Shown in pieces: positions 34,722-52,827 of a DNA stretch of 64,000 bases. The stretch is taken from assembly GCA_040757625.1 (NCBI GenBank), contig JBFLWU010000008.1, positions 7,865-71,864 of the forward strand, in the 5' to 3' direction. Position 1 is the stretch's first letter, and every line of letters begins with the position of its first letter. The stretch comes from Thermodesulfobacteriota bacterium (lineage in GTDB: Bacteria; Desulfobacterota; Desulfobacteria; Desulfobacterales; JARGFK01). The position numbers and the translations under genes were made by a program. The notes beneath the pieces were generated by a model. The model was not told the DNA's origin. It was given only the letters and a program-made list of their open reading frames with translations, and ran no database searches.

Positions 34722-36107
34722 TTAATACGTCAATTTCCCCTGGGCCAATTCCACCTTAAATCGTTTCATCTGGTTCCATACGGTCACACGGGAGACCCCC
34801 AAAAGCTCTGCTGCCAGGGATTGATTGCCGTTGGATTTCTCAAGCGCTTCTATCAGACGACGTTTTTTCATTTCACCCCTGTTCAGGGGGATTTTCTTGT
34901 CCTTTTTCTCCGATTTATTCTCCCCATAAATATTGGGCGGCAGGTGATACGGTTGAATGACCGAATCCTGACAGGTAACAAAGGCGTATTCAAAGGTGCT
35001 TCTTAACTCCCGCACGTTTCCCGGCCAGGAATATGCCATCAATATCCGCATGGCATCATTGCTGATCCCGTTGATTTTTTTATCGGTTTTAAGGCGGATT
35101 CTTCTGAAAAACGCCTCGGCCAAGATGGGGATATCTTCAATCCTCGCCCGCAAGGGGGGAACATGGATCGGTATCACATTGATCCGGTAAAAGAGATCTT
35201 CCCTGAAAAGTCCTTGCTCTACCTGCTCCTTCAGGTCTTTGTTGGTGGCGGATATAATCCGGACATTAACATGAATGGGTTGATTATCCCCCACGCGCTC
35301 GACAACTTTTTCTTCCAGAACCCGCAGCAGTTTCACCTGGGTTAAAACAGGCAAATCGCCGATCTCATCAAGAAAAATGCTCCCTTTCTGAGCAGCCTCA
35401 AATCTTCCGGCACGATTGCGAATGGCACCGGTATAGGCACCTTTGACATGCCCGAAGAGTTCGCTCTCGAGCAGCGCTTCATTTAATGACGCACAATTGA
35501 CTTTCACGTATGGATTGGAGTGGCGCTGACTGTTATCATGAATCGCTTTGGCCACCAGTTCCTTGCCGGTGCCGCTTTCACCAAAAATAATCACGGGCGC
35601 ATCCGATTGAGCCGCGTTGGCTATCAAATCAAACACCTGTTGCATGGGCCCGGAAACCCCCAGGATACCGTGAAAGCCGTTTTCCGATTGAAGTTCGCGG
35701 CGAAACGCCGCAATCTGATTGTCCTTTTCGACGATTTCGGTGATGTCCGTAACCGTTTCCACTGCGCCCATCACTTCGCCGGCGGAATCATACAAAAGAG
35801 AGGCATTCTTTAAAACGTGAATCAACCGGCCGCTTTTTTGAACAAACGTGCATCTGCGCATGTCCATGGAACCGGTCTTAAATAAAACACACCAGTGCTC
35901 CCCCTTATCGCGACGGGCAAATTCGAATATATTACAATTCAATATGGAGCAGGGCTTTCCCAGCATCTCATCTTTTGAATAACCGGTTATTCTTTCAATG
36001 GCCTTATTGACCGAGACAATGCATCCGCCCTTATCAACGATCATGACTCCGTCCTGGATCGTATCCACCACTTTCTTCCAATAGAGGTTCAACTCCTGTT
36101 CAAACAT
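34722..36107 (-). CDS. sigma-54-dependent transcriptional activator (PAS - AAA+ - Fis HTH)
   Basis: Cys-containing PAS, GESGTGKE, GAYTGA, C-terminal HTH AAELLGVSRVTVWNQMKRF. Divergent from the Hdr-like operon. Confidence 0.9.
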   Translation of the reverse strand: MFEQELNLYWKKVVDTIQDGVMIVDKGGCIVSVNKAIERITGYSKDEMLGKPCSILNCNIFEFARRDKGEHWCVLFKTGSMDMRRCTFVQKSGRLIHVLKNASLLYDSAGEVMGAVETVTDITEIVEKDNQIAAFRRELQSENGFHGILGVSGPMQQVFDLIANAAQSDAPVIIFGESGTGKELVAKAIHDNSQRHSNPYVKVNCASLNEALLESELFGHVKGAYTGAIRNRAGRFEAAQKGSIFLDEIGDLPVLTQVKLLRVLEEKVVERVGDNQPIHVNVRIISATNKDLKEQVEQGLFREDLFYRINVIPIHVPPLRARIEDIPILAEAFFRRIRLKTDKKINGISNDAMRILMAYSWPGNVRELRSTFEYAFVTCQDSVIQPYHLPPNIYGENKSEKKDKKIPLNRGEMKKRRLIEALEKSNGNQSLAAELLGVSRVTVWNQMKRFKVELAQGKLTY

Positions 36108-36382: not shown

Positions 36383-36398
36383 TGGCATCCGCTTTGCA
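36383..36398 (+). promoter_or_regulatory. sigma-54 promoter for the Hdr-like operon
   Basis: TGGCATCCGCTTTGCA is a near-consensus TGGCAC-N5-TTGCA. It sits about 47 nt upstream of the first start codon and has a divergent sigma-54 activator gene. Confidence 0.7.
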
Positions 36399-36696: not shown

Positions 36697-36804
36697 ACCT
36701 TGCTCTAAACGAGAGGGTACCCCGGCCATGAATAAAACAAGTAAGCAACAGACAGCAAAAGGGCTCATCGCGTTCTTTTTCATGCAGAAATCAGGAGGGT
36801 GTTC

Positions 36805-39800
36805 ATGTCCATAAAAATTGGGTTCTTTATTTGTCACTGCGGCATCAACATCGCTTATAGAGTACGGGTGGAGGAGGTGGCGGCCTTCGCCCGCAAACTC
36901 CCCAACGTGGTGGTTGCCAGGGACTACAAGTTCATGTGTTCGGACCCCGGCCAGGAACTGATCGAAAAAGATATTCGGGAATACGGTCTGAACCGGGTCG
37001 TGGTGGCCTCCTGCTCACCCCGACTCCATGAGAAAACCTTTCGCGGGGCCTGCGAACGCGCCGGTCTCAACCCCTATATGTTCCAGATGGCCTCTGTTCG
37101 CGAGCAAGTCTCCTGGGTCACGCCGGATGAAGAGGAGGCCACCCGTAAGGCAAAAACCCTTGCGGCCGCCGCCATTAACCGGGTCAACTACCATCACAGC
37201 CTCGAAACCCGTGAAGTCGATGTGCATCCGGACGTCTTGGTGGTGGGGGGCGGCATCGCCGGCATGCAGGCGGCCCTGGACGTCGGCAATTCCGGTCACA
37301 AGGTTTACCTGGTTGAAAAACAGACAACCATCGGCGGTCATATGCTGCAGTTCGACAAAACCTTCCCGACCCTTGACTGCGCTGCCTGTATCGGCACGCC
37401 CAAAATGGTCGAAGTGGCCCAAAATTCTAATATTGAACTCTTCTCCTACAGTGAGGTCAAGGAGGTGTCCGGGTACATCGGCAATTATACGGTAAAGATT
37501 CACCGCAAACCTCGGTACGTCAAGGAGAGCGTCTGTACGGGCTGCGGAGAATGCGCCGGTGTCTGCCCGGTATCTCTCCCCAGTGAATGGGATGAAGCAC
37601 TGGGAAACCGAAAGGCCGTTTACCGCTCTTTTCCCCAGGCCGTCCCCATCACCTTCTGCATCGACAAAAAGGACCGGGCCCCCTGTGTGACGACCTGCCC
37701 GGCGGGAATCAACGTTCAGGGGTATGTCCAGCTGATCGGTCAGGGTAAATACAAGGAGGCTGTCGCGCTGATCATGGAAAAGCTTCCTCTGCCGGGGGTG
37801 TTGGGACGCGTGTGTCCGCACCCCTGTGAAAAACAGTGTCGCCGCCAGGAAGCCGATGAAGCCGTCGCCATCCGGGAATTAAAGCGTTTCGCCGCCGACC
37901 AGGTTGGCCCGGCGGATTTACCGCCGCCTGAAATCGAGGACCGCAGCGAAAAAGTGGCAGTGGTGGGCTCCGGGCCGGCCGGCTTGACGGCCGCCTATTA
38001 CCTGCGGTTGAAAGGTTATGCGGTAACGATTTTCGAGGCCCTTCCAAAGCCGGGCGGCATGCTCCGCGTCGGTATTCCCGATTACCGCCTGCCCCCGGAA
38101 GTACTCGACAAGGAGATTGGCTATATTCTCCGGCTGGGGATTTCCATTGAAACGAACAAACGTTTGGGGCGGGATTTTACCCTGGAAAGTCTCAAATCCG
38201 AGGGGTTCAGCGCCATATTTCTGGCAATCGGTGCCCACAAGAGTCTGAATATCAATATTCCGGGTGAAAACGACTTCAAGGGCGTTTTCAATGCCGTGGA
38301 CTTCTTGAGGGAAATTAACCTGGGAGGCCGTAACCGTCCAGGCAAGGATGTTGCCGTTATCGGCGGCGGCAACGTCGCCATTGACGCCGCTCGCATCGCC
38401 AAGCGCCTGGGCTGCGATTCCGTGACGGTGGTTTACCGTCGCACCCGCAATGAAATGCCGGCCTATCCCGAGGAAATTAGAGACGCCCTGGCGGAAGGAA
38501 TCCAAATTCACTACCTGACAGCGCCGGTGGGGATCGTTGGTGATAACGGCGTCGTCTCCGGCCTGAAATGCATCAAAACCGAACTGGGGGCGCCCGACGC
38601 CAGTGGACGCCGCCGTCCGGTGCCGGTGGAAGGTTCGGAGTTCTTGATCGAATGTGACGCGATTATCGGCGCCACCGGGCAGCGGATTGACGGTGACTGG
38701 ATCGCGGCGGAGAAAGGTCCGGATTTAACCCGGCGGGGCACGATTGCGGTAGATCCGCACACCATGCAAACATCCCTTGCGCACATATTTGCTGCCGGCG
38801 ATGCGGTCACCGGTCCGGCATCGGTGGTTGAAGCCGTTGCCGCCGGGCGCAAAGCGGTGGAAGCCATTGATCGGTATCTCAATGATGAAAATCTGGAGGA
38901 ATACGCTCAAATATTGGCGGCCGAGGAGGCTCCGGGTCAGGACTGGCAGGAAATACCCGAAAACACATACAGACGCAAACGGTCACAGCCCGCCCACCTG
39001 GCGGCGGCACATAGATCCACCAGTTTTGACGAGGTAAACGGCGGCTTTTCGGAAGAGCAGGCCCGCCAGGAGGCCGATCGGTGCCTGAATTGCGGCATCT
39101 GTTCCGAATGCATGGAATGTGTCAGGGTCTGCGAAGCCAATGCCATTGACCACAGCATGAAAGCCGAAGAAATCGAAGTCAAAGTGGGCAGCATCATTGT
39201 CGCAACAGGGTATGACCTCATGGACCCCACCCCCCTGAAACAATTCGGGTATGGCTCCTATCCCAACGTGTTTACCAGCCTTGAGTTCGAACGCCTCAGC
39301 AATGCCACCGGACCGACCGGGGGCAAAATTCTGATCCGGGATGAAAACGGCGAATTTACCAAGTCCCCTGCCAGCGTGGCGATTCTGCACTGCATCGGCA
39401 GCCGCGATGTGAATTATCACGAATACTGCTCCCGTGTCTGCTGCATGTATGCATTGAAATATTCCCATCTGATCAAGGAAAAGGTGGGTCACGATACGGC
39501 CGTCTACGATTTCTATATCGATCAGCGCTGTTACGGCAAAGGCTATGAAGAGTTTTATAAAAGATGCCAGGAGGAAGGCACCACCTTCATCAGGGGGAAG
39601 GTCGCTGAAATTACAGACCGCGCCGTCAAACCCGAAGAAGCGGGCAAGCTCATCGCCGTTGCCGAAGACACCCTTCTGGGGAGTGTTCTGCGCGTGCCGG
39701 TGGACATGGTGGTCCTGTGTTCCGCCATCGAAGCACGCCGGGATGCCAATGAGGTCGGTCGCATATTCGGAGTCAACCTGGGTGCGGACGGATTTTTTCT

Positions 39801-40215
39801 GGAGGAGCACCCCAAGCTGGGCCCGTTGAACACCGCCACGGACGGCGTGTTTCTAGCGGGCGCCTGCCAGTCTCCCAAAGACATTCCGGATACCGTCGCC
39901 CAGGCCTCGGGGGCTGCTGCCAAGGCCCTTTCCCTGGCAACCCGAGGGGTCGTGCAGATACCGTCGACCATCTCCTGGATCGATCCGGATGTCTGCGCCG
40001 GCTGTCAGACCTGTATCGGTTTGTGTCCGTATACGGCGATTGAGTTTGATGAGCGCCGGAGGATTTCGGTGGTCAATGAAGCGCTGTGCAAAGGCTGCGG
40101 CAGTTGCGCCGGATTTTGTCCCAGCGGCGCCGCCCAGGTAAAGCATTTCAACAAGCGCCAGATATTTGCGGAGTTTGACGGCATTATCGATGCCTTACAC
40201 TCGGTGGGAATGTAG
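36805..40215 (+). CDS. HdrA-like flavoprotein with inserted GltD/NfnB-like NAD(P)H module (HdrL-type fusion, about 1136 aa)
   Basis: HdrA N-domain (FFICHCGINIA...ASCSPRLHE), FAD fold VVGGGIAGMQAALD, CTGCGECAGVCP. GltD-type CPAGINVQGY / VCPHPCEKQCRR, VAVVGSGPAGLTAA, VAVIGGGNVAIDAAR. The HdrA fold then resumes (TSLEFERL, HCIGSRD, CSRVCCMYALK) and ends with 2x CxxCxxCxxxCP. Start at ATG 36805 behind aggaggg. Confidence 0.87.
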   Translation: MSIKIGFFICHCGINIAYRVRVEEVAAFARKLPNVVVARDYKFMCSDPGQELIEKDIREYGLNRVVVASCSPRLHEKTFRGACERAGLNPYMFQMASVREQVSWVTPDEEEATRKAKTLAAAAINRVNYHHSLETREVDVHPDVLVVGGGIAGMQAALDVGNSGHKVYLVEKQTTIGGHMLQFDKTFPTLDCAACIGTPKMVEVAQNSNIELFSYSEVKEVSGYIGNYTVKIHRKPRYVKESVCTGCGECAGVCPVSLPSEWDEALGNRKAVYRSFPQAVPITFCIDKKDRAPCVTTCPAGINVQGYVQLIGQGKYKEAVALIMEKLPLPGVLGRVCPHPCEKQCRRQEADEAVAIRELKRFAADQVGPADLPPPEIEDRSEKVAVVGSGPAGLTAAYYLRLKGYAVTIFEALPKPGGMLRVGIPDYRLPPEVLDKEIGYILRLGISIETNKRLGRDFTLESLKSEGFSAIFLAIGAHKSLNINIPGENDFKGVFNAVDFLREINLGGRNRPGKDVAVIGGGNVAIDAARIAKRLGCDSVTVVYRRTRNEMPAYPEEIRDALAEGIQIHYLTAPVGIVGDNGVVSGLKCIKTELGAPDASGRRRPVPVEGSEFLIECDAIIGATGQRIDGDWIAAEKGPDLTRRGTIAVDPHTMQTSLAHIFAAGDAVTGPASVVEAVAAGRKAVEAIDRYLNDENLEEYAQILAAEEAPGQDWQEIPENTYRRKRSQPAHLAAAHRSTSFDEVNGGFSEEQARQEADRCLNCGICSECMECVRVCEANAIDHSMKAEEIEVKVGSIIVATGYDLMDPTPLKQFGYGSYPNVFTSLEFERLSNATGPTGGKILIRDENGEFTKSPASVAILHCIGSRDVNYHEYCSRVCCMYALKYSHLIKEKVGHDTAVYDFYIDQRCYGKGYEEFYKRCQEEGTTFIRGKVAEITDRAVKPEEAGKLIAVAEDTLLGSVLRVPVDMVVLCSAIEARRDANEVGRIFGVNLGADGFFLEEHPKLGPLNTATDGVFLAGACQSPKDIPDTVAQASGAAAKALSLATRGVVQIPSTISWIDPDVCAGCQTCIGLCPYTAIEFDERRRISVVNEALCKGCGSCAGFCPSGAAQVKHFNKRQIFAEFDGIIDALHSVGM

Positions 40216-40393
40216 CCGGGCCAGGGGCCGGCATTCAGGGTCGGGTGCCAGGCAAAACAGATCTTGAAAACTAAAAGTCCTCATAATTTTGAAATTCGCT
40301 GAAACGATTATGACTCAAAAAGGAACGACATGAAAGCGTTTGCCCCTGAATACCAATTACCGGAAACGAGTTTAAAATATTTTGGAGGCAACG

Positions 40394-40885: not shown

Positions 40886-42031
40886 ATGGCTACAACGTGG
40901 AAGTTTGAAACTAAAGATCAGGCGCTTTTGGAATCGCTGCAGGAACTGTTACGGTCCGTTCTGGAAATGGAAGATATCAGCGCCGTTCTAGTCCCCCGGC
41001 GTCTTCCCATGAAAAATATGGTGATGCCGACGCTGGTGAGCGACCCGGAAAAGCTCGACGGGATCGATCCGCTCTCCCCGGCATTTCCCATGAACGCAGC
41101 CAAGATCGTATCCAGGCTCACCCGCAAATCCATGGGGGGCAAAGTGGTGGCGGTTTTGCGTCCCTGTGAAATCCGGGCATTCATCGAATTGGTCAAACTC
41201 AAGCAGGGGCAAACGGATGAACTCGTCATCATGGCCATCGACTGCCTGGGCGCCTACCGGAATTCGGATTATTTTAAATTTGTCGAAAAAGATTTCGAAG
41301 CAGCAGCCCGGCGCTTTTATCAGAGCGTGCTTTCCGGCCGCGGCGCCGCCGTGGACAACGTCGATCTGGCAGAGGCCTGCAAGGTCTGTGAATATCCGGT
41401 TGCAACCCATGCCGATATTCTGATCGGCCTTTACGGCGTTCCCACCGATGACCACTTCATCGTTCAGGGGCTGACCCCTGCGGGTGAAGCGGTTTTGAAT
41501 CCGCTCAGCCTTGCCAAGGCACAGGAGCCGCCGGAGCGCCAAAAAACAGTTGACGAGCTGATCGCCGCCAGAACGGCCTATCGCGATCAAATGTTTGCGC
41601 GTACCGCCGAAGCCACCGCCAGCCTGGAAAAATTGACGACCTATCTGGCCAATTGCGTCAACTGTTACAACTGCCGGGTCGCCTGTCCGGTCTGCTACTG
41701 CAAGGAATGCGTATTCGTCACGGATGTGTTCAACCATGAACCGGCTCAATATCTGAGGTGGGCGGCCCGCAAGGGCGTCATCAAAATGCCCACTGATACC
41801 GTTTTTTATCATATTACCCGGCTGGCCCATATGAGTACGGCCTGCGTCGGTTGCGGCCAGTGCTCCAACGCCTGTCCCAACGACATCCCGGTAATGGAGC
41901 TCTTTCGCACCGTGGCGGCGCACACGCAGAGGGGATTCAACTACGAGGCCGGACGCAGCCTGGAAGAAAAACCGCCCCTGTCTGAATTTCGTGAAAATGA
42001 ATTCAACGAGGTGGTAGGGATGTCCGCATAA
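40886..42031 (+). CDS. FrhB/FdhB-like iron-sulfur protein (2x[4Fe-4S] plus FrhB-type domains)
   Basis: 381 aa. VLRPCEIRAF...AIDCLG, CVNCYNCRVACPVCYC, CVGCGQCSNACP. The family call is from the overall pattern only. Confidence 0.6.
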   Translation: MATTWKFETKDQALLESLQELLRSVLEMEDISAVLVPRRLPMKNMVMPTLVSDPEKLDGIDPLSPAFPMNAAKIVSRLTRKSMGGKVVAVLRPCEIRAFIELVKLKQGQTDELVIMAIDCLGAYRNSDYFKFVEKDFEAAARRFYQSVLSGRGAAVDNVDLAEACKVCEYPVATHADILIGLYGVPTDDHFIVQGLTPAGEAVLNPLSLAKAQEPPERQKTVDELIAARTAYRDQMFARTAEATASLEKLTTYLANCVNCYNCRVACPVCYCKECVFVTDVFNHEPAQYLRWAARKGVIKMPTDTVFYHITRLAHMSTACVGCGQCSNACPNDIPVMELFRTVAAHTQRGFNYEAGRSLEEKPPLSEFRENEFNEVVGMSA

Positions 42032-42051
42032 AAACTGGAGAGGTGTTAACG

Positions 42052-43359
42052 ATGACAACTGCAGCAGTCAAACTCGGAAAGAAGAAAGCGAGCCTATTTA
42101 TCGATAAAGTCAAAGAGCTTCTGCCGGAAGGCGGAAATTTGAACCTGTGCCTCACCTGCGGCGCGTGCACTTCCGGCTGCCCGGCGTCGGGACTGGAGGA
42201 GATGGATCCACGCAAGTTTCTGCGCATGGCGGCGCTGGGATTGGACGAAGAGATCACTGCAACGCCCTGGGTCTGGATGTGTACCATGTGTAAGCGCTGT
42301 ATTTACGTTTGCCCGATGCAGATCGATATCCCCCAGTTGGTGTATCACGCCCGCAACGCCTGGCCGCGTGAAACCCGACCCAAGGGTATCCTGGGCTCCT
42401 GTGATATGGCCCTGCGCAATGACAGCTGCAGCGCCATGGGGGCTTCCCCCGAGGATTTCCAGTTCGTGGTGGAAGACGTACTGGAGGAATACCGCGAAGC
42501 CCAGCCTGAATTTAAAGACATGCAGGCGCCCATCGACAAGCAGGGGGCCTATTTCTTTGTGAATCAAAACTCCCGCGAGCCGGTAACCGAACCGGACGAG
42601 ATGGTGCCCCTCTGGAAAATCCTGCATCTGGCGGGCGCCGACTGGACTTACGGCAGCAAGGGCTGGGGGGGAGAAAATTACTGCATGTTCCTTGCTGATG
42701 ACCAGGCCTGGGAGCACATCGCCCGGACCGCCGCCAAGCAGGCCGATGTACTCGGCTGCAAGGTCTTTCTCAACACCGAGTGAGGGCACATTACCTTTGC
42801 AGTCCGGGCCGGACTGAAAAAATTCAATATCGAACATAAGTTTGAGGTTGCCAGCATCTACCAATACTACGCCAAATGGGTCCGGGAGGGAAAATTGAAA
42901 ATCAACGCCGACTGGAACAAGGATTTGAAGATCAAGTTTACCGTTCAGGATCCCTGCCAGATCGTGCGCAAAAGCTTCGGAGATCCGGTGGCGGATGATT
43001 TGCGTTTTGTGGTCAAAACGTTGGTGGGCGAAGAAAATTTCATCGAGATGCATCCCAACAAAAGCAACAATTACTGCTGCGGCGGCGGCGGCGGCTTTCT
43101 GCAGTCCGGTTATGTCGAGGCCCGCCGTAAATACGGCGAGCTGAAACTCAACCAGATCTTGGCCACCCGGGCGGATTACTGCATTACGGCCTGCCACAAC
43201 TGTCACGCCCAGATTCACGATTTGGCCGAACACACGAACGCAAAGTATCATACGGTTCACTTGTGGACCCTGATCTGCCTGTCCCTGGGAATTCTGGGGG
43301 AAAACGAACGCGAATATCTGGGGCCGGATTTGAAAGAGGTGGCCGTTTATGGCGCTTAA
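42052..43359 (+). CDS. HdrD/DsrK/GlpC-like CCG-domain Fe-S oxidoreductase, predicted selenoprotein (UGA at 42781-42783 read as Sec)
   Basis: Track ORFs 42043-42783 and 42895-43359 are in the same frame, and the 111 nt between them contain no stop. Joined product: CLTCGACTSGCP, CTMCKRCIYVCP, then KVFLNTE-U-GH...FTVQDPC...YCCGGGGG...CHNCHAQ, which is one intact CCG domain. Confidence 0.75.
42800..42816 (+). promoter_or_regulatory. candidate bacterial SECIS hairpin
   Basis: cagtcc-gggcc-ggactg stem-loop starting 17 nt after the in-frame UGA. Confidence 0.5.
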
Positions 43360-43496: not shown

Positions 43497-46400
43497 ATGA
43501 AAAAAAAGGTGGGCACGGCTTTGGTGGTGGGTGCAGGAATCAGCGGGATCCGGGCGGCTCTGGATTTGGCTGAAAATGGATACGGGGTGAAACTGATCGA
43601 CCGATCCCCCCATCTGGGCGGAATTCTGACCCAGCTCGACTACCAGTTTCCCACGAACCGCTGCGGGATGTGCAAAATGCTGCCGCTGGTGGACCGGGAT
43701 GCGTCCTCGCAATACTGCCTGCGCAAGGGGCTCTTCCATGAAAACATTGAAATTTTAACGTCCACCGAACTTGTCTCGGTGGCGGGCGAATCGGGGAATT
43801 ACCGCGTAAAACTCCGTCAGAAGCCCAGCTGGGTGGACCCGGAACTGTGCGTCGGCTGCGGCGCCTGCGTACCGGTCTGTCCGGTGGAAGTTCCGGATGC
43901 GTTTAATGCCGCCTTGGCACGGCGCAAGGCCATCTACTTGCCGGTACCCCACGCCATCCCCAATCCTTTCGCCATCGACGTGACGGCCTGTACGCGGTGC
44001 GGCGCCTGTGAAGCGGTCTGCCCCACCGGCGCCATTCGACTGTCCGACCAGGAAAGAAAAATGTTTCGCATTCTCGTGGTGGACGATGAACTGATTGTGC
44101 GCGATTCGCTCAAGGCCTGGCTGGATGATGAAGAAGGGTTTATGGTGGATACGGCCGAATCCGGACCGGACGCCTTGGACAAGTTAACCAAGAACTCGTA
44201 TCAATTAATGCTGCTGGATATCAAGATGCCGGAAATGGACGGCGTGGAGGTTCTCCGAAAAACCAAAGATATCCTGCCCGATATCCAAGTGGTGATGATG
44301 ACCGCCTACGCTACCGTCGAGACGTCCGTCGAAGCCATGAAGATCGGTGCGCTGGATTACCTGATTAAACCCTTCGACCCGGAAACACTCGTACCTAAAA
44401 TTCTGCAGCTTTATGAAGATCTTGAGACTTCCCGGGCCAGGGAGGTGGAAGTGGGGGCGCTGGTCCTCTGCGGCGGCAGCAGCTATTATAATCCGGCGGA
44501 TGGAAAAAACACCTTCGGCTATAAGAACCTTCCCGGGGTTATCACCAGCCTGGAGTTTGAACGCCTCATCAGCGGCACCGGCCCATGTCAGGGCCGCCTG
44601 ACGCGTCCCGAAGACGGCAAACCCATCCGTAAAATCGCCTGGATTCAGTGTGTCGGATCCCGGGACCTGCAAAGCAGCGCCGATTTTTGTTCAAATGTCT
44701 GCTGCATGATCGCCGTCAAAGAGGCCCTGCTGGCCAGGGAAAAATTCGGCGAAGCAGTGGAAACCACCGTCTTTTATATGGACATGCGCACCTTCGGCAA
44801 ATCGTATCAGCGCTATCGCAACGCGGCTGAAAAGACTCACGGCGTTCACTTCGAACGGGGCCGGGTGCACTCGGTCATCAGGGACGGCACCACCGATCAA
44901 AACGGGGAAGATCTGTCCGTCCGCTACGCGGACGCCGGCGGTGCCATCCGGGATGAACGTTTTGATATGGTGGTCCTGGCCGTCGGCCAGCGTCCGGTGG
45001 CGGGGACGATTGAATTGTCGAAACAGCTGGATATTCCCCTGAATCCCTGGGGATATTGTCAGACCGAACCATTTTCCATGACAAAAACCGGAAAAGACGG
45101 AATCGTCGTCGGCGGCGCTTATTCCGGCCTCAAAGACATCAGCGAATCCGTGATTCAGGCATCGGCCGCGGCCTTATCCGCATCCCGGGCGATTCACAGT
45201 GTCGGCGGCAGTCTGGCATTGGAAACCGAGCCCGCCCCTGAACAGGCCGGTCTGGCGAGGGAATTACCCCGGACACTGGTAGCTATCTGTACCTGCGGCG
45301 ATGCGCTTTCGGAATTTGCCAGATCTCTGGAATTGTCGGCACGACTTCAAAGCGATCCGGCCGTAAGCGCAGTGGAATTTGTTGATCGAATCTGTACCGC
45401 CGCCGGGTGGGAAACCTTGCTGCAGGTTGTGGAAAAGCATCGGCCCAACCGGATTCTGATCGGCGCCTGCCTGCCCTGCGTCTATGCACCGAAAATCAAG
45501 GCGCTCGCCGGCCGCGCCGGCCTGAACCCGTCGCTGACGGACGTGGTGGATATCCGCTCCCCGGCATTTGAAACCCTCGATCCTGAAAAACCGGCCGACA
45601 CGAAGCATATTATCGCCATGATGGCAAGCGCCCTCTTGACCGGTTTGGCCAGGCTGAAACGGGTGGACCCCTCACCCGTAGCCACCATCAAGGTCCAGCA
45701 GCAGGCCCTGATTGTCGGCGGAGGCATTGCCGGAATGACGGCGGCGCTGGCAATTGCTGATCATGGATTTCATGTCGACCTGATCGAAAAGGAAGACCGG
45801 CCGGGCGGAAATCTGACCTGGCTCCGGGGCACCCTGGAGGGTCAGGCTGTCAAACCCTTATTGGATGGGACCCTTGCGAAGGTTGAAAAACACCCGCTGA
45901 TCGAAGTTCGCACCCAAACCCATGTGGTAGGCGCTTATGGTCAAGTGGGTAATTTTTTCACAACCATCGAAAACCAGGACGGTCGGACCGATACTCTCCG
46001 GCACGGCGTCATTATTCTGGCCACCGGCGGCGCCGAAGCGATCCCCAGCGCCTATCATTACGGGGAGAGCGACGTGATTATCACCCAGAAGGAACTTGAA
46101 CAAAAACTGGACCGAAACGAAATCGATCCTTTGAAGCTGGAATCGGTGGTCATGATCCAGTGTGTCGAATCGCGCGAAGAACCGCGCAACTATTGCAGCC
46201 GAATCTGCTGTTCATCAGCCTTGAAACACGCCCTGGCGTTAAAGCAGATAAACCCTGAAATCGAAATATTCATCTATTATCGCGACATGATGTCCTATGG
46301 ATTCATGGAGACCTATTTTACCCGCGCCCGACAGGCGGGGGTAATCTTCATCCAGTATGATCCCATGCAAAAACCGGAGGTCATCCCGGCAACCGAGGCT

Positions 46401-46970
46401 GCCGGCGGCAGCCCTGTCAGCGTCAAAGGCTATGATCCCATCCTGGGGCGTCCCGTGGAAATCGAGGCCGATCTGGTGGTCCTTTCCATGGGGGTGGTGC
46501 CCGGCCTGCCGGCGGACTTGGCGGCGTCCCTGGGAACTTGTCTGGATCAAGACGGTTTTTTTCAGGAGGCTGAGGCCAAATGGCGACCGGTCGACGCCAT
46601 CAAGGAAGGCATATTCGCCTGCGGGCTGGCGCACTCGCCCCGTTCCATCGCCGAGGCGGTTACCACCGCTGAAGCGGCGGCCCAGCGCACCCTTCGGATT
46701 CTGTCGCAAAAATTTCTACCGGCCGGAAAAATTGTGGCCGGGGTCCATCATGCCCTGTGCAGCCTGTGCCAACGCTGTATCGATGCCTGCCCCTACGGCG
46801 CTCGCACCCTGGATGAGGACGTGGAAAAAGTCTTGGTAAACCCCGTGATGTGCCAGGGCTGCGGTTCCTGCGCCGCTGTTTGTCCCAACAGCGCATCGTT
46901 TTTGGAGGGATTTCATGAAGAACAGATGTTTGAGACGATCGACGCCGCCTTGGAGGGAACTTTCGGATAG
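43497..46970 (+). CDS. tandem HdrA-like flavoprotein with embedded response-regulator receiver domain (1157 aa)
   Basis: FAD fold VVGAGISGIRAALD, 2x CxxCxxCxxxCP, REC at aa about 189-306 (RILVVDDE, LMLLDIKMPEMDG, VVMMTAY, DYLIKPF), then TSLEFERL / IQCVGSRD / CSNVCCM. A second HdrA module follows (ICTCG, GACLPC, IVGGGIAGMTAALA, QCVESRE, CSRICCSSALK, terminal 2x[4Fe-4S]). Confidence 0.87.
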   Translation: MKKKVGTALVVGAGISGIRAALDLAENGYGVKLIDRSPHLGGILTQLDYQFPTNRCGMCKMLPLVDRDASSQYCLRKGLFHENIEILTSTELVSVAGESGNYRVKLRQKPSWVDPELCVGCGACVPVCPVEVPDAFNAALARRKAIYLPVPHAIPNPFAIDVTACTRCGACEAVCPTGAIRLSDQERKMFRILVVDDELIVRDSLKAWLDDEEGFMVDTAESGPDALDKLTKNSYQLMLLDIKMPEMDGVEVLRKTKDILPDIQVVMMTAYATVETSVEAMKIGALDYLIKPFDPETLVPKILQLYEDLETSRAREVEVGALVLCGGSSYYNPADGKNTFGYKNLPGVITSLEFERLISGTGPCQGRLTRPEDGKPIRKIAWIQCVGSRDLQSSADFCSNVCCMIAVKEALLAREKFGEAVETTVFYMDMRTFGKSYQRYRNAAEKTHGVHFERGRVHSVIRDGTTDQNGEDLSVRYADAGGAIRDERFDMVVLAVGQRPVAGTIELSKQLDIPLNPWGYCQTEPFSMTKTGKDGIVVGGAYSGLKDISESVIQASAAALSASRAIHSVGGSLALETEPAPEQAGLARELPRTLVAICTCGDALSEFARSLELSARLQSDPAVSAVEFVDRICTAAGWETLLQVVEKHRPNRILIGACLPCVYAPKIKALAGRAGLNPSLTDVVDIRSPAFETLDPEKPADTKHIIAMMASALLTGLARLKRVDPSPVATIKVQQQALIVGGGIAGMTAALAIADHGFHVDLIEKEDRPGGNLTWLRGTLEGQAVKPLLDGTLAKVEKHPLIEVRTQTHVVGAYGQVGNFFTTIENQDGRTDTLRHGVIILATGGAEAIPSAYHYGESDVIITQKELEQKLDRNEIDPLKLESVVMIQCVESREEPRNYCSRICCSSALKHALALKQINPEIEIFIYYRDMMSYGFMETYFTRARQAGVIFIQYDPMQKPEVIPATEAAGGSPVSVKGYDPILGRPVEIEADLVVLSMGVVPGLPADLAASLGTCLDQDGFFQEAEAKWRPVDAIKEGIFACGLAHSPRSIAEAVTTAEAAAQRTLRILSQKFLPAGKIVAGVHHALCSLCQRCIDACPYGARTLDEDVEKVLVNPVMCQGCGSCAAVCPNSASFLEGFHEEQMFETIDAALEGTFG

Positions 46971-47102: not shown

Positions 47103-47167
47103 ATATGGAGCGTTGAAATAGCTTCCAATAAAAATTGCGACATTTTATTCATCACTGAGGATTGACC

Positions 47168-47740
47168 ATGAATCAACCGGAGCTTAAGCAAAAAGAAAAC
47201 ACACCGAATTCTCTGCCGGATCCGCTGGTATCGGTCCAGAATATGATCAAAGCCTGTATCCAGTGCGGTACCTGTACGGGTTCCTGTCCCAATGCCTTTG
47301 CCATGGATCCGACCCCGCGCCAGTTGTGGCGCAGGGTCCTGCTGGGGCAAACGGACGAAATATTCAGGAGCCAGACATTCACGCTGTGTTCAGCCTGTTA
47401 TTATTGCACCCTGCGGTGCCCCCGGGGCCTGCCGTTGACCGAGGCCATGGGTGCGCTCAAGCAGATCGCCGTCCGCGATGACCTGAAACGATACAAAAAG
47501 AGTATTCGGTTCTACAAAAGCTTTCTCAGCAGCGTTCGCCGCCATGGTCGCGTGCATGAGATGGAGTTTATGACTCTTTATTTCCTGTCCATGAAAAGTC
47601 CGTTTCTGCCGCTTAAGTTTACCCCCCTTGGACTGCGCCTGATGGGTAAAAGAAAAGTCGGCGTCGAAATCCCGTCCCGGAAACCGAATCCTTTGGACGC
47701 CATTTTCCGCAAGGTCGAAGAGATGGAGGAGCGCTCATGA
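47168..47740 (+). CDS. hdrC: heterodisulfide reductase subunit C-like (2x[4Fe-4S])
   Basis: CIQCGTCTGSCP and CSACYYCTLRCP with HdrC-type spacing. ATG 47168 behind gagga. Confidence 0.85.
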   Translation: MNQPELKQKENTPNSLPDPLVSVQNMIKACIQCGTCTGSCPNAFAMDPTPRQLWRRVLLGQTDEIFRSQTFTLCSACYYCTLRCPRGLPLTEAMGALKQIAVRDDLKRYKKSIRFYKSFLSSVRRHGRVHEMEFMTLYFLSMKSPFLPLKFTPLGLRLMGKRKVGVEIPSRKPNPLDAIFRKVEEMEERS

Positions 47741-48666
47741 AATATCTCTACTATCCTGGTTGTTCACTGGAAGGAACCGCCCTGGAGTACAATGAATCCA
47801 CCAAGGCATTCATGCGGGCCGTGGGCGCGGAACTGATCGAACTGGATGACTGGACCTGCTGCGGCGCCACCGCCGTCGAATCGGTCAGCCGCCTGTTGGC
47901 CCTGGCGCTGCCCGCCAGAAATATCGCGTTGGCGGAAAAAATGGATGATTCCAAAGATATCCTCGTCCCGTGCAGCGCCTGCTACCTGAACCTGAAAAAA
48001 GTAGAAGAAAAAACCCGCAAGGAACCCGAACTTCAAAAAAAACTGAACGAAATTTTAAGCATAGAACAACTGCGACTGCAAGGCAAAGTCCGGGTCCGGC
48101 ATCTTCTGGACGTGGTTGCCAATGACCTGGATCCCACGGTCCTTCGGAGCCGGGTTCAACAATCCTTTTCCGGATTTAAGATTGCGCCGTATTACGGCTG
48201 TCAGTGCCTTCGCCCTTACCGGGTTTTTGACGATCCGGAAGACCCGCGTTCCATGGAACCGCTGATTGAAGCAACCGGGGCGGAAGTATTTTCCTGGGAC
48301 ATGGGAGGCAGGTGCTGCGGCGCCTCCCATATGAATACCAAAATGGAGGTGGGGCTCAGCCTGGTAGCCGCCATATTGAAACAGGCCAAAGGGGCTGATG
48401 CCGTCATTACGGTCTGTCCCATGTGCCAGATGAACCTGGAGGCATATCAGCGCAGGGCTGCAAAACAATTAAATGAAGATCTGGACATCACCATACTCTA
48501 TCTGCCGCAGCTCTTGGGACTGGCCATTGGCTTGTCGGAAAAGGACCTGCGCCTCGACTTGAACCTGTCACTAAAAAAGCAGTTTCGTGAAAAGCTGAAC
48601 GATAGACCTGTTCTTCCGGAAAACGCAGCCGAAAGCAGCCGGCAGACCGTTTTAACCAACGCCTGA
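47737..48666 (+). CDS. hdrB: heterodisulfide reductase subunit B-like (two CCG domains)
   Basis: YYPGCSLEG...WTCCGAT...PCSACYLN and YYGCQCLRP...RCCGASH...VCPMCQMN. ATGA overlap with hdrC. Confidence 0.88.
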   Translation: MKYLYYPGCSLEGTALEYNESTKAFMRAVGAELIELDDWTCCGATAVESVSRLLALALPARNIALAEKMDDSKDILVPCSACYLNLKKVEEKTRKEPELQKKLNEILSIEQLRLQGKVRVRHLLDVVANDLDPTVLRSRVQQSFSGFKIAPYYGCQCLRPYRVFDDPEDPRSMEPLIEATGAEVFSWDMGGRCCGASHMNTKMEVGLSLVAAILKQAKGADAVITVCPMCQMNLEAYQRRAAKQLNEDLDITILYLPQLLGLAIGLSEKDLRLDLNLSLKKQFREKLNDRPVLPENAAESSRQTVLTNA

Positions 48667-48693: not shown

Positions 48694-50982
48694 ATGAAAG
48701 GTGCTTTCACGTCGTTTAATAATTTGCGCCACAGCCTGGGATTTAAGCTGATTTTAACCGTCGGCGTCACCCTGCTGCTGTCCATCGGGATCTGGGCTTT
48801 CTTTAACATCAAGTACCAGCAGGCGAAGCTCATATATCATATCGTTGCCGATGCCGACCGGTTGAGCCACACCATCATCCTTGGCACGCACGATGCCATG
48901 CTGCACGACTCAAGAGGCGATATCGCCCGGATCATCGAAAACATCGGTCGGCAAAAAGAACTTCGCGCCTTACGAATCTACAATAAAGACGGGGTGGTAA
49001 AGTATTCGAGCCGGCCGGCCGAGATTGACCAAGCCGTTGATATCCAGGCAAGAGTCTGTTCGGTATGTCATCTCTCGAGTCCGCCGCTGTCTCAGGTTGA
49101 TTTGGCAAAACGGGCCTGGTTTACCACCACGCCGAAAGGGTCGCGCCAGATGGAGATCGTTACGCCGATCCGGAACGAACCCCGGTGCACCTCCGGTCCT
49201 TGCCATATCCATTCGGGTGAAAAAAAATTTTTAGGCGCATTGAACTTAATTTTTTCCCTTGAGCAGACTGAAAAAGAGATCCTCCATCTTGAAAAAGGAA
49301 TCATTGCGCTGGCGGGTTTCGTTTTTCTGGTAACCTCCACGATTATTTTTGTTTTCGTGATGAGATTCGTCAATCTCCCCATCAAGAAGCTGATCATCGG
49401 CACCCACCGGATTGCCAAAGGAAATTATCTCGGCCAGGTGGACATTTCCGGGCCAGACGAAATGGGGCAATTGGCAGCCGCCATAAACAAAATGGGTCAA
49501 GAAATCTGGGAAAATCAGGCGGAGCTCAACCGTCAACGAAACGAATACCAATCGCTCTTTGACCATGTCCCCTGCCTGATTACCGTGCAGGACAAAGACT
49601 ACCGTCTGATCGGGGTTAACCGCGAATTTTCTGAAAAGTTCAGGCCGACCCTGGGCGAATACTGCTACCAGGTCTACAAGGGACGCAGCAGTAAGTGCAG
49701 TGAGTGTCCGGTCGAACAGACCTTTAAAGACGGAATGTCACATTATGCGGAAGAAACCGGTTCAGATAAGGATGGAACGGTGACCCACTGGATCGTAAAA
49801 ACAGCGCCCATTCGCAATATCAACGGAGAGATTGTCGCCGCCATGGAAATGAGCGTGGACATCACACACAGCCGGATGCTTGAAGAAAAACTGGAAGAGT
49901 CGGAAAGGAAATATCATGAAATTTTCAATAATATGCCCAATCCAGCCTTTGTTCTGGATGGGCATAAGCTGCAAATTTTAGACTGCAACCAGCGTGTAAA
50001 AAATATTTACGGCTTCAGCAGGGAAGAGTTGATTCAAACCTCATTTCTCGATCTCTTTAAGGATAAAGAAATGGGAGCGAATACCTTAAAAATCAGAAAC
50101 TCCAGCGTACTGCATCAGGCGACGCACCTGAGAAAGACCGGTGAGACCATTTATGTGGATATCTGGATCTCGCCGCTGATATACGAAGGACAATTGGTAT
50201 TTCTGGTGACCACCAGCGATATCACCCAGCGGCTTGAAACCGAACAGCAGCTCATCCAGGCCGGTAAAATGGCCACCCTTGGCGAAATGGCCACCGGTGT
50301 GGCCCATGAGCTGAACCAGCCCCTTTCGGTTATCAAAACCGCCAGCAGCTTTTGCATCAAAAAGATTCAAAAAAACGAAGAAATAGCCGATAAAACCCTC
50401 TTCACCATGCTGAATAAAATAGACGGCAATGTCGACCGGGCTACCAAAATTATCACGCATATGCGACAATTCGCCAGAAAGACTGATATGAACCTGGTGA
50501 AAGTGCAGATCAACGACATCCTGCAGCGGGCCTTCGAGATTTTCAGCCAGCAGTTGAAGCTGAGAGGAATTGAAGTCGCCTGGCATTTGGCGCCGGATCT
50601 ACCGCTCGTCACAGGTGACCCCGACCGGCTGGAGCAGGTATTTATCAACCTGATCTTAAACGCCAGAGAGGCCATGGAGGAAAAATCAGCCTCCATGGCC
50701 GCAGAAAGCATTGAGAAAAGAATAACGCTTAAAACAGCCGCAAATGGGGAAAAGGTTACCGCTGAAGTCTGTGACACGGGAATCGGAATCCCCAAGGCGG
50801 TTGCGGACAAAATTTTCGAACCGTTCTTCACCACCAAAGAAGTGGGGAAAGGGACCGGGCTGGGGCTCTCTATTAGTTATGGTATCGTTAAAGACTGCGG
50901 CGGAACCATTCGGGTCAAATCAGAAAGCGGCCAGGGAGCGTGTTTTATCATAACGTTTCCTCTGCCAAACAAGGCGCAATGA
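48694..50982 (+). CDS. sensor histidine kinase: TM - periplasmic heme-c-type domain - TM - HAMP - PAS(Cys4) - PAS - HisKA - HATPase
   Basis: Two TM helices flank about 165 aa carrying CSVCH (CxxCH) and CTSGPCH (CX4CH). HAMP follows, then PAS with VPCLITVQD...CYQVY...CSECP. H-box VAHELNQPLS, then NLILNAREAM, DTGIGIP, GTGLGLS. Confidence 0.88.
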   Translation: MKGAFTSFNNLRHSLGFKLILTVGVTLLLSIGIWAFFNIKYQQAKLIYHIVADADRLSHTIILGTHDAMLHDSRGDIARIIENIGRQKELRALRIYNKDGVVKYSSRPAEIDQAVDIQARVCSVCHLSSPPLSQVDLAKRAWFTTTPKGSRQMEIVTPIRNEPRCTSGPCHIHSGEKKFLGALNLIFSLEQTEKEILHLEKGIIALAGFVFLVTSTIIFVFVMRFVNLPIKKLIIGTHRIAKGNYLGQVDISGPDEMGQLAAAINKMGQEIWENQAELNRQRNEYQSLFDHVPCLITVQDKDYRLIGVNREFSEKFRPTLGEYCYQVYKGRSSKCSECPVEQTFKDGMSHYAEETGSDKDGTVTHWIVKTAPIRNINGEIVAAMEMSVDITHSRMLEEKLEESERKYHEIFNNMPNPAFVLDGHKLQILDCNQRVKNIYGFSREELIQTSFLDLFKDKEMGANTLKIRNSSVLHQATHLRKTGETIYVDIWISPLIYEGQLVFLVTTSDITQRLETEQQLIQAGKMATLGEMATGVAHELNQPLSVIKTASSFCIKKIQKNEEIADKTLFTMLNKIDGNVDRATKIITHMRQFARKTDMNLVKVQINDILQRAFEIFSQQLKLRGIEVAWHLAPDLPLVTGDPDRLEQVFINLILNAREAMEEKSASMAAESIEKRITLKTAANGEKVTAEVCDTGIGIPKAVADKIFEPFFTTKEVGKGTGLGLSISYGIVKDCGGTIRVKSESGQGACFIITFPLPNKAQ

Positions 50983-52148
50983 ACCAAAATCAAAAAAAAG
51001 CTCCGGTTTTACTGGTAGATGATGAAGAAGATATCCGTGACGTTTTGGGGATATCCTTATCAGATTGCGGCTATGATATCATCATGGCTGAAAATGGCGA
51101 AACAGGCTTGCGCCTGTTCCGGGAAATTAATCCGCAGATTGTCCTGACAGACATTAAAATGCCCGGCATGGACGGAATTGAGCTGCTGCGAAGGATCAAA
51201 TTCGAAAATCAGGACACGGAAGTCATCATGATCACTGGTCATGGAGACATGGATCTGGCCATTGAAAGCCTTAAACATGAAGCCACCGATTTTATCACCA
51301 AACCGATCAATGTGAATGCCCTAGAAATTTCGCTGAAACGGGCCCACGACAAGATTCGTATGCGGGAGCAATTGCGAGAATATACCCAAAACCTTGAACA
51401 GCTGGTGCGCGAAAAGACCGAGTTGCAGGATCACCTGTCATCTCTGGGTCTGATGATCAGCTCCATTTCGCACGGCATCAAGGGGCTCTTAACCGGCCTG
51501 GACGGCGGGATGTATCTGCTCGATTCGGGTTTCGCCAAGCAAAAACAGGATCAAATCCAGGAAGGCCTCGATGTTGTTAAGATCATGGCTGAACGCATCC
51601 GCAAGATGGTCATGGATATTCTCTATTACGCCAAGGAGCGCAACCTGTCCTGGGAGCGCGTCAACGTCTTAAGCTTTGCAAATGAGGTCACCCAGACGGT
51701 GGCACCGAAATTCAAGAAGCAGGGTATCAAACTGGTCTGTGAATTCGATCCTTCGTTGGATGAGTTTGAGATCGATCCCGGTTCGGTCCATGCGGCCCTG
51801 ATCAACATCCTGGACAACGCTGTGGATGCCTGTGTCAACGACAAATCCAAAGAGGCTCACCAAGTCCGCTTTAACGTCAAAGATGATAAAGATCACATTG
51901 TATTCTTCATATCCGACAACGGTATCGGTATGGATGCCGAGACCCGTGAAAAAATCTTTACGCTTTTTTTCTCGTCCAAAGGGAAGAAGGGAACGGGATT
52001 GGGCTTGTTTATTTCCGATCGGATCATCAAGCAGCACGGCGGAACAATTGAGGTCAGTTCGACTCCCGGAAAAGGATCCAAATTCAGTATTAATATTCCA
52101 AAAATAATCCCCAAGGCCGTGAGGCGACCCCATAATTCAGGCGCTTAA
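50979..52148 (+). CDS. hybrid receiver-histidine kinase (REC - HisKA-like - HATPase)
   Basis: Start MNQNQKK with ATGA overlap onto the upstream kinase. REC (LLVDDEEDIRD, VLTDIKMPGMDG, DFITKP). H-region SISHGIKGLLTG, then NILDNAVDAC, DNGIGMD, GTGLGLF. Confidence 0.88.
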   Translation: MNQNQKKAPVLLVDDEEDIRDVLGISLSDCGYDIIMAENGETGLRLFREINPQIVLTDIKMPGMDGIELLRRIKFENQDTEVIMITGHGDMDLAIESLKHEATDFITKPINVNALEISLKRAHDKIRMREQLREYTQNLEQLVREKTELQDHLSSLGLMISSISHGIKGLLTGLDGGMYLLDSGFAKQKQDQIQEGLDVVKIMAERIRKMVMDILYYAKERNLSWERVNVLSFANEVTQTVAPKFKKQGIKLVCEFDPSLDEFEIDPGSVHAALINILDNAVDACVNDKSKEAHQVRFNVKDDKDHIVFFISDNGIGMDAETREKIFTLFFSSKGKKGTGLGLFISDRIIKQHGGTIEVSSTPGKGSKFSINIPKIIPKAVRRPHNSGA

Positions 52149-52732: not shown

Positions 52733-52827
52733 CGTATAGAGGCTAAATAAGATTAAAATTTTTAAGCGGACGCCATGTTTCTCTATTCCAACCCGGACAA
52801 TAAACAAAAAACAAGGAGGTGGAAGAG

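Follow-up and report, generated by a model that had tools for sequence, protein, structure and literature searches.

A receiver domain nested in an HdrA-like flavoprotein

We describe a flavoprotein related to subunit A of heterodisulfide reductase (HdrA) that carries a complete CheY-like receiver (REC) domain inside its flavin fold, and whose electron transfer may be controlled directly by phosphorylation. The protein is encoded at 43497..46970 (+) of the window, a 64,000-nucleotide stretch of DNA from a Thermodesulfobacteriota bacterium, and is best explained as the putative flavoprotein core of a soluble heterodisulfide reductase (Hdr)-like complex. Translation gave a single uninterrupted frame of 1157 amino acids (aa), as the first-pass annotation, made from the DNA letters, had read it. 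The product is identical to GenBank MEW6671203.1 (exact NCBI match), labelled 'MAG: response regulator [Thermodesulfobacteriota bacterium]'. Taken together, matches from Pfam, NCBIfam, and phmmer and Foldseek searches that returned HdrA structures (8rvu, 8rvy, 5odc and 7bkb) describe the product as an HdrA-like single-chain flavoprotein with an inserted receiver.

The receiver occupies residues 187-314 (44055..44438, +) and carries D196, D197, D241, T269, Y288 and K291. The corresponding phospho-chemistry set in CheY is D12, D13, D57, T87 and K109, and D241, whose codon lies at 44217-44219, is the predicted phospho-acceptor. Pfam Response_reg (PF00072) matched residues 192-301 at 102.7 bits, where the cut-off is 30.2 (E=1.6e-29), and covered profile positions 1-109 of 111, in agreement with the earlier placement of a complete receiver at aa about 189-306. 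An AlphaFold2 model computed on a 58-sequence alignment (mean predicted local distance difference test score (pLDDT) 75.9, predicted template modelling score (pTM) 0.76) predicted a canonical (beta-alpha)5 receiver at residues 191-311, with five strands and five helices in order at pLDDT 82-89. In this model helix alpha5 of the receiver (295-311) passes, after a one-residue break, into a strand of the flavin domain (313-319).

D196, D197, D241, T269 and K291 are invariant in the 58 aligned homologues, likewise A270, Y288 and P292, and the same D-D-D-T-K set was found in 211/214 REC-bearing family sequences, including relatives at 45-56% overall identity. Absence of the conserved Asp, Thr and Lys, which the first-pass annotation had named as fatal to its reading, was thus not observed. 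Column conservation in the 58-sequence alignment is 0.83 in the receiver, compared to 0.74-0.77 in the flavin domains, and the insert measures 127-129 aa in all 76 open reading frames (ORFs) examined. As judged from these alignments, the receiver is complete and under strong purifying selection.

The insertion site was defined by phmmer alignment to methanogen HdrA in the PDB (E about 1e-114). Target residues 7-186 aligned to HdrA 153-321 and residues 315-463 to HdrA 325-471 (8rvu, Methanothermobacter marburgensis); because the alignments stop at residue 186 and restart at 315, the insertion point is fixed within a few residues. The receiver stands in place of a linker of ~8 residues, where the ferredoxin domain that is itself inserted in HdrA returns to the flavin fold.

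Two complementary HdrA halves in one chain

The protein begins with the N-terminal part of a thioredoxin-reductase-like flavin adenine dinucleotide (FAD) domain (module 1; aa 1-104, 43497..43808, +), aligned to HdrA 153-321 (8rvu) and 145-314 (5odc). Its GAGISG motif, C56 and C59 are invariant in the alignment columns across the family, and C59 is the aligned counterpart of Cys197 in M. thermolithotrophicus HdrA, a residue whose equivalent in HdrA ligates a cluster of the partner module. The AlphaFold2 model is of very low confidence at aa 41-78 (43617-43730; pLDDT 32-43), a segment holding C56, C59 and C74; such values are expected for a model without cofactors, and this part of it is unreliable. 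The inserted ferredoxin domain follows (aa 105-186, 43809..44054, +), recognised by HdrA alignment and by Pfam Fer4 at 113-132 and 159-180, and it is the sole inserted ferredoxin domain in the protein. Two CxxCxxCxxxCP motifs had been claimed for the N-terminal region, and both were located here as [4Fe-4S] motifs, C118/121/124/128 and C165/168/171/175. Beyond the receiver, the FAD domain of module 1 resumes (aa 315-575, 44439..45221, +; aligned to HdrA 325-471) with the cluster motif CVGSRD...CSNVCC, of which C385, C398, C402 and C403 are invariant in the family alignment.

The remainder begins with a region similar to HdrA's N-terminal domain (aa 588-730, 45258..45686, +), in which four Cys residues, C598, C600, C633 and C658, are invariant in the family alignment; phmmer aligned target 588-766 to HdrA 9-183, which comprises this domain and the start of the flavin domain. 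A second FAD domain (module 2; aa 731-1075, 45687..46721, +) contains GGGIAG and CVESRE...CSRICC, gave Pfam matches to Pyr_redox_2, NAD_binding_8 and FAD_oxidored from aa 737, and aligned to HdrA from 476 onward. The chain ends in a C-terminal ferredoxin domain with two [4Fe-4S] motifs (aa 1076-1157, 46722..46967, +; Pfam Fer4_7 and Fer4_10 at 1086-1132), and phmmer aligned target 974-1153 to HdrA 476-654, the end of the flavin domain together with the C-terminal ferredoxin domain. Overall, Pfam returned Response_reg, four Fer4 motifs and two sets of FAD/NAD(P)-binding Rossmann matches, while the top NCBIfam matches were HdrA2 and HdrA in four separate stretches. The thioredoxin-reductase-like FAD fold is present twice, as G12-G17 with C385/C398/C402/C403 and as G741-G746 with C889/C900/C904/C905, all of them invariant, and Foldseek of the model returned the HdrA structures 8rvy, 5odc and 7bkd at E 1e-42 to 1e-39 (8rvy_A, E 3e-42). 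All the sequence motifs quoted in the first-pass annotation are present in the translation, namely VVGAGISGIRAALD, NRCGMCKM, RILVVDDE, LMLLDIKMPEMDG, VVMMTAY and DYLIKPF, as well as TSLEFERL, IQCVGSRD and CSNVCCM, which it had assigned to the resumed HdrA fold.

That annotation had also proposed a double HdrA with a second full HdrA module. The two HdrA-type flavin modules are indeed there; the second is not a full HdrA, because in the phmmer alignment the two halves complement each other. C59, the Cys197 equivalent, belongs to module 1, as does the sole inserted ferredoxin domain, and this module is devoid of an N-terminal domain and of a C-terminal ferredoxin domain; module 2 has both of the latter domains and lacks a Cys197 equivalent and an inserted ferredoxin domain. 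All four HdrA features are therefore found in the chain, divided between the modules. The fused and tandem HdrA proteins of anaerobic methanotrophic (ANME) archaea were read as single-chain asymmetric heterodimers by Chadwick et al. (PMC9012536), and because the halves of the target are complementary in the same way, it is predicted to be a single-chain asymmetric HdrA heterodimer, a better description than a double HdrA.

Compared with methanogen HdrA (5ODC, 7BKB, 8RVU/8RVY), the target shares the thioredoxin-reductase-like FAD fold, the CxGxRD...CSxxCC motif, the inserted ferredoxin domain with two [4Fe-4S] motifs, the N-terminal cluster domain, the C-terminal ferredoxin domain, the Cys197 equivalent and adjoining HdrB/HdrC genes. 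It differs in dividing these features over two fused complementary modules, in the receiver behind the inserted ferredoxin domain, and in its bacterial host, in which the heterodisulfide CoM-S-S-CoB is unlikely as substrate. Similarly, the ANME proteins HdrA3/4 and HdrA5/6 (Chadwick et al. 2022, PMC9012536) have the N-terminal domain and Cys197 on complementary halves, and in some ANME-1 HdrA the inserted ferredoxin domain contains or adjoins a foreign, NfnB-like domain (PMC9012536). Unlike the fused ANME proteins, the target has the reverse order of halves, with the Cys197-bearing half first; its insert is a signalling receiver, not a redox module, and its lineage is bacterial (Desulfobacterales, Syntrophobacterales).

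The architecture recurs in Desulfobacterales and Syntrophobacterales

A search of a 5.8-billion-protein collection, of which the best 120 matches were taken, returned only proteins with PF00072, of 1130-1169 aa, at 63-83% identity and 99-100% query coverage. Their sources are assemblies made independently of one another (NCBI, JGI, ENA and Logan); the Desulfonema magnum genome of 8.0 Mb is one of them, and two further contigs measure 4.6 and 2.8 Mb. A genome scan with the junction region as query, using one genome per GTDB species, gave 79 loci, to which three earlier loci were added; 68 of those loci match across the ferredoxin domain, the receiver and the flavin domain. The database search for the same architecture called for in the first-pass annotation thus found it in all of the best 120 protein matches and at 68 species-level genome loci. 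Carriers in the Desulfobacterales include Desulfobacteraceae, Desulfosarcina, Desulfococcaceae, Desulfonema, Desulfobacula, Desulfobacter, Desulfotignum, Desulfatibacillaceae and Desulfosudaceae, and the REC-bearing architecture is also present in Syntrophobacterales.

These data bear on a trivial explanation, that separate hdrA and response-regulator genes were joined into this ORF by an assembly error or a frameshift, an outcome that would have undone the original reading. We give it practically no credence: the full-length architecture is repeated in the best 120/120 clusters from independent assemblies, complete or near-complete genomes among them, as well as in the 68 species-level loci, and no indels were seen at either receiver junction in the 58 aligned sequences. 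The comparative data refute a chimera.

Among 1.84 billion representative proteins searched for relatives, the REC-bearing proteins form a subgroup of a larger family of REC-less double HdrA proteins of about 1000-1030 aa, which have the ~8-residue linker at the insertion site and belong to the same operon type. Proteins such as P0134, P0137 and P0140 resemble the target in their two-module layout and in an operon of HdrL, MvhD, FrhB-like protein, double HdrA, HdrC and HdrB; they differ from it in having the short linker only and in the rarity of kinases, found near 5/30 loci.

Two kinase genes accompany the receiver-bearing gene

Two kinase genes, placed by the first-pass annotation at 48694 and 50979 at the 3' end of the operon, were verified there by Pfam and sequence inspection. 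The first, histidine kinase 1 (HK1; 48694..50982, +), has a transmembrane segment, an extracytoplasmic domain, a second transmembrane segment, HAMP, two PAS domains, HisKA with the H-box HELNQP, and HATPase. Its extracytoplasmic domain of ~165 aa, between two hydrophobic segments, contains CSVCH (CxxCH) and CTSGPCH (region 48694-49368). Because CxxCH is kept in 56/59 homologous HK1 sensor regions (Cx4CH in 46/59), the sequence suggests that HK1 is a periplasmic c-type haem sensor. A weak Pfam match of the HK1 sensor region to Mcp40H-20_sensor was also recorded. The second kinase, HK2 (50979..52148, +), is a hybrid with a receiver in which the D, D, D, T and K residues are present, a DHp domain (SHGIKG) and HATPase. 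The HK2 ATG at 50979 overlaps the stop codon of HK1, an alternative GTG start being found at 50940, and the gap between HdrB2 and HK1 is 27 nucleotides (nt); on the basis of this spacing and the start/stop overlap, both kinases are probably co-transcribed with HdrB2.

Downstream genes were counted in 50 genome loci with at least 6 kb of downstream sequence, an orthologue being defined by at least 45% identity (a threshold stated for HK1). HK1 orthologues were found in 41 of these loci and HK2 orthologues in 35, with both in 34. For comparison with REC-less genes, metagenome contigs were scanned with a REC-less alignment, loci were sorted by home-made REC and kinase hidden Markov models, and a kinase was counted within 9 kb at loci with at least 5 kb downstream. 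A kinase was present at 54/57 REC-bearing loci versus 5/30 REC-less loci (Fisher exact p=8e-14, kinship ignored).

Within the window, the stretch from 33.5 to 60.8 kb encodes five kinases, of which three are hybrids. Besides HK1 and HK2, Pfam identified a REC-HisKA-HATPase kinase (33536-34702), a HAMP-PAS-HisKA-HATPase kinase (53933-55813) and a REC-PAS-HATPase kinase (58735-60759). The receiver of the HdrA-like protein is the only one outside a kinase in this stretch, the activator of the operon having PAS in place of REC, and no DNA-binding response regulator was found among the genes of these ~27 kb.

Composition of the operon

Directly downstream of the target are genes for HdrC2, an HdrC-like 4Fe-4S dicluster subunit (47162..47740, +; Pfam), and HdrB2, an HdrB-like protein with two CCG domains (47737..48666, +; Pfam CCG in two stretches). 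The HdrB (CCG) and HdrC partnership is thus present at the gene level, and both proteins are likely partners of the target. Their orthologues were found in 38/50 (HdrC2) and 39/50 (HdrB2) of the loci counted downstream.

Upstream, an HdrL-type gene (36799..40215, +; Pfam and insert mapping) encodes an HdrA with a GltD/NfnB-like NAD(P)H module of ~480 aa, the name HdrL deriving from Desulfobacterium autotrophicum (PMC2702500). It is followed by genes for MvhD/FlpD (40382-40816, +), a FrhB-like Fe-S protein (40886-42031, +), an HdrC-like protein (HdrC1; 42043-42783, +) and a single-CCG protein (42895-43359, +), all assigned by Pfam, with the order MvhD, FrhB-like, HdrC-like and single-CCG identical in loci L002 and L003. 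In 43 loci with upstream sequence, orthologues of HdrL were found in 39/43, of MvhD in 38/43 and of the FrhB-like protein in 37/43, and the HdrL, MvhD, FrhB-like, HdrC1 and CCG proteins are probably further partners of the target. At the P0025 locus (L003:1925-6988), HdrL is replaced by a short HdrA-like FAD/Fer4 protein together with NuoE-, NuoF- and NuoG-like genes, a set that reads from its sequence as an alternative NADH-input module for the same operon type.

The GltD-like insert of HdrL (~480 aa) maps to the same HdrA site as the receiver of the target, and does so also in L002, L004 and about 55 other loci. The D. autotrophicum HdrL (PMC2702500) is comparable, with a foreign GltD-like insert at the target's receiver site, as mapped on the HdrL of the window. 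Because the HdrL module and the receiver share one position, the point where the inserted ferredoxin domain exits appears to be a hot spot at which extra domains are inserted.

The first gene of the operon (36445-36696) encodes a TusA-like protein without the catalytic Cys. The canonical TusA motif is D.RG..CP.P; the protein reads LDLRGAIPPITLL at this position, and the canonical motif is absent in all five closest homologues (window, L002, L003, L012 and L067). About 50 nt upstream of this gene lies a candidate sigma-54-type -24/-12 promoter element, TGGCATccgctTTGC (36383..36397, +), with one mismatch to the pattern. The pattern occurs in the window at chance level (64 found versus 70 expected), and the support for this element consists of its position and the adjoining activator gene. 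That divergent gene (34722..36107, -) encodes a PAS/sigma-54 activator/HTH_8 enhancer-binding protein without a receiver (Pfam), and the same gene is found in L002 and L003.

Other genes lie downstream of the kinases. DUF134 and DUF5320 genes follow HK2 (52406-53429); in the REC-less locus L085:19040-23054, DUF5320 stands with Nitro_FeMo-Co-like and CbiA/ParA-like genes, a recurring accessory cluster. An Rrf2-family regulator, a Pyr_redox_2/FCSD-central flavoprotein (sulfide-dehydrogenase-like) and a DUF1641 protein are encoded in this order at 56077-58662, and these genes, downstream of the kinase cluster, may form a redox module related to sulfur.

Evidence against direct control and alternative roles of the receiver

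Several observations weigh against a receiver that switches an Hdr-type enzyme on the order of its neighbouring kinases. The target scores below the NCBIfam equivalog cut-offs for HdrA2 (NF040770; 663.7 vs 1100 bits) and HdrA (NF041778 and NF041891; 534.8 vs 1400 and 530.9 vs 1300), and by these scores it counts as a homologue of methanogen HdrA and not as an equivalog. In a rough neighbour-joining tree (Kimura distances, without support values), the REC-bearing genes form essentially one clade, with 80/84 tips REC-bearing. The Fisher test is for this reason not phylogenetically independent, and the kinase association may stem from a single ancestral event. One REC-less protein, P0136, is nested in this clade with an HK2 orthologue alongside (62% identity in REC), and no kinase adjoins the REC-bearing gene at the Desulfonema magnum locus. 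P0133 (1155 aa, 42% identical) has a degenerate receiver with D-P-D-G-H for D-D-D-T-K. Finally, a small stand-alone REC gene is present in 29/57 REC-bearing loci, usually just upstream of HdrL, and a larger REC protein, often of about 440-470 aa, an NtrC-like size, in 13/57; such stand-alone REC proteins or NtrC-type regulators could be the real or additional targets of the kinases.

The same comparisons disposed of several simpler accounts of the family. Kinases are not exclusive to REC-bearing genes, given the 5/30 REC-less loci with kinases and the HK2 orthologue adjoining P0136. Nor are the stand-alone and the inserted receiver strictly complementary, since 29/57 REC-bearing loci have a small REC gene as well. 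Multiple independent origins of the insert are unsupported in view of the single clade (80/84 tips) and the constant insert length, and the two REC-less members nested in the clade look like secondary losses. Derivation of the insert from the stand-alone receiver of REC-less sister operons (a 'Rosetta stone' relation) is likewise unsupported: BLASTP gave 28-44% identity (the 44% over 84 residues only), compared to 37% to the receiver of HK2.

The abundance of receivers leads to a different role for the domain, namely as a phosphate sink, or as a reporter whose redox-dependent phosphorylation or dephosphorylation would tell the kinases the state of Hdr, with the outputs elsewhere. Many loci have extra REC proteins and several hybrid kinases, and the REC-less loci with kinases (L085, L087, L110, L161 and L167) have a stand-alone REC gene of ~130 aa in the same operon. 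HK2 has its own receiver, and no HPt was found among the domain matches of the operon proteins, which suggests that the network branches and is not a linear relay. Against this, no DNA-binding or other effector REC protein is encoded near the operon in the window, and an insert of constant length and high conservation in a catalytic fold seems costly for a mere sink. We consider a sink or reporter role improbable.

It may also be asked whether the domain is a structural pseudo-receiver, never phosphorylated, acting only as a spacer or as a docking surface where insertions are tolerated. In the P0133 lineage the domain is kept although T, K and one acidic residue are gone, so in at least one lineage the receiver can persist without full phospho-acceptor chemistry; the fragment P0141 (503 aa) is likewise degenerate (D-P-D-A-K for D-D-D-T-K). 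The site accepts unrelated inserts, Desulfonema magnum has no neighbouring kinase, and the small stand-alone receivers of sister loci are often pseudo-receivers themselves, the phospho-Asp being replaced by Asn or Glu. Retention of the five phospho residues in 211/214 sequences, of A270, Y288 and P292 in the 58 aligned, and of adjoining kinase orthologues in most genomes speaks for a functional receiver, and we regard a purely structural role as still less probable than a sink.

Five of the small REC genes upstream of HdrL that have Asn or Glu are L027:552-995, L036:1118-1558, L039:3836-4375, L052:4016-4435 and L078:4160-4591. They directly adjoin HdrL in L027, L039, L052 and L078, while the small receivers of L004, L010 and L042 keep the Asp.

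Proposed mechanism

Direct control of the enzyme by phosphorylation is the best reading because the receiver is intact, kinase orthologues stand by 54/57 loci, and the only receiver of the operon outside a kinase is the one in the HdrA-like protein. An insertion-tolerant site, as indicated by the ~480 aa GltD-like module of HdrL and the NfnB-like domain of ANME-1 HdrA (PMC9012536), was also counted in its favour. Beyond the observed architecture, insertion site, conserved phospho-acceptor residues and kinase neighbours, we infer phosphotransfer, a catalytic effect with its direction, and bifurcation.

In flavin-based bifurcation, electrons from one donor reduce a high- and a low-potential acceptor in a coupled manner at a flavin. 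In methanogen Hdr this takes place at the FAD of HdrA, with the low-potential exit via the inserted ferredoxin domain, and recent structures attribute the gating of electron transfer to conformational flexibility within HdrABC (PMC9012536, PMC13518236). By its homology to methanogen HdrA, the target complex may bifurcate likewise. The receiver sits at the return hinge of the sole inserted ferredoxin domain, with its output helix alpha5 fused to a flavin-domain strand in the AlphaFold2 model. We lean slightly towards the view that phosphorylation of D241 by the kinases of the operon alters how the ferredoxin domain is placed or moves with respect to the FAD, switching or re-routing electrons. 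Gating of this domain is the most likely form of control because there is one such domain per chain, the receiver stands at its hinge and alpha5 is fused to the strand.

In the proposed sequence of events, membrane-bound HK1 would sense the periplasmic redox state or a ligand via its c-type haem, and would phosphorylate D241 alone or via the hybrid kinase HK2. The usual alpha4-beta5-alpha5 rearrangement would then be transmitted by alpha5 to the hinge of the ferredoxin domain, where the shift in geometry would alter the passage of electrons between the FAD and the low-potential branch; alternatively, the complex would change its state of assembly. The enzyme would act as the last response regulator of the chain, and the putative sigma-54 promoter and the PAS-type activator would control operon transcription separately.

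The second of these outcomes constitutes an explanation of its own. The phosphorylated receiver may act on assembly, with alpha4-beta5-alpha5 dimerisation of the kind known from NtrC-class receivers joining two Hdr complexes or recruiting or releasing the input module of HdrL, MvhD and the FrhB-like protein. NCBIfam assigned aa 190-300 to NtrC-family receivers (AtoC, ZraR and NtrC), NtrC1 was among the PDB matches, and the nearest non-Hdr receivers found (L080-L082, 54-56% identity) lie directly upstream of a sigma-54-activator-like sequence. Moreover, methanogen HdrABC works as a dimer (PMC9012536), while the fused target, as its own heterodimer, would have that interface free, and the operon has two HdrC/CCG sets and a second flavoprotein, HdrL. 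There is a single receiver per chain, and the direct fusion of alpha5 to the strand in the model suggests an intramolecular coupling instead; the present data do not separate assembly from gating. We take control through assembly to be unlikely, while giving it more weight than a sink or a structural role.

Relation to known enzymes and significance

Response regulators fused to metabolic enzymes are a recognised class, which according to brief descriptions includes a 'TrxB' type combining REC with thioredoxin reductase (PMC5847659, PMC9953108). In CheB, PleD/WspR, RpfG and the 'TrxB' class (Galperin census, PMC5847659, PMC9953108), as in the target, a canonical receiver is joined to an enzyme and two-component control of catalysis is presumed, and the output of the 'TrxB' class is, like that of the target, a thioredoxin-reductase-type flavin fold. 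As these sources summarise them, the receivers of such enzymatic response regulators are terminal, usually N-terminal, whereas that of the target is nested in the catalytic fold behind an inserted domain, and its output is an Hdr-type flavoprotein with multiple clusters that is predicted to belong to a multisubunit complex. With its receiver internal (aa 187-314), the target falls outside the 'TrxB' class as briefly described, in which REC and oxidoreductase stand end to end.

A search of full-text literature, with most subscription journals outside its scope, found no characterised member of the 'TrxB' class or of the target family, no receiver nested in HdrA and no phospho-regulated Hdr or bifurcating enzyme; the statement in the first-pass annotation that no characterised enzyme of this kind was known agrees with the absence from that literature of any publication on the architecture. 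A 2024 preprint on HdrA domain architectures makes no mention of a receiver in HdrA. In the D. autotrophicum genome paper, the hdr loci drawn in Fig. 4 include, according to the legend, genes for a response regulator, a histidine kinase and a CheY-like regulator (PMC2702500). The concept of a response regulator with an enzyme output is therefore already known, and the receiver nested inside HdrA would be the novel part.

Tentatively, and with less confidence than we place in control by phosphorylation as such, the target may be the first Hdr-type, probably bifurcating, flavoenzyme with a ferredoxin branch gated by two-component phosphorylation, in which a haem-c kinase would couple extracytoplasmic redox conditions to the cytoplasmic electron split of abundant marine sulfate reducers, post-translationally and apart from sigma-54 control. 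Methanogens, methanotrophs and sulfate reducers all depend centrally on Hdr-type flavoproteins to conserve energy. If the reading is true, it would reveal how anaerobes that live close to the thermodynamic limit retune the partitioning of electrons among ferredoxin, NAD(P)H and disulfide within seconds, and D241, with BeF3- and phosphomimetics, would offer a natural handle to trap conformational states of Hdr. A function would also be given to the two kinases and to a protein family, widespread among Desulfobacterales and Syntrophobacterales, whose members now bear no label beyond 'response regulator' or 'FAD-dependent oxidoreductase'.

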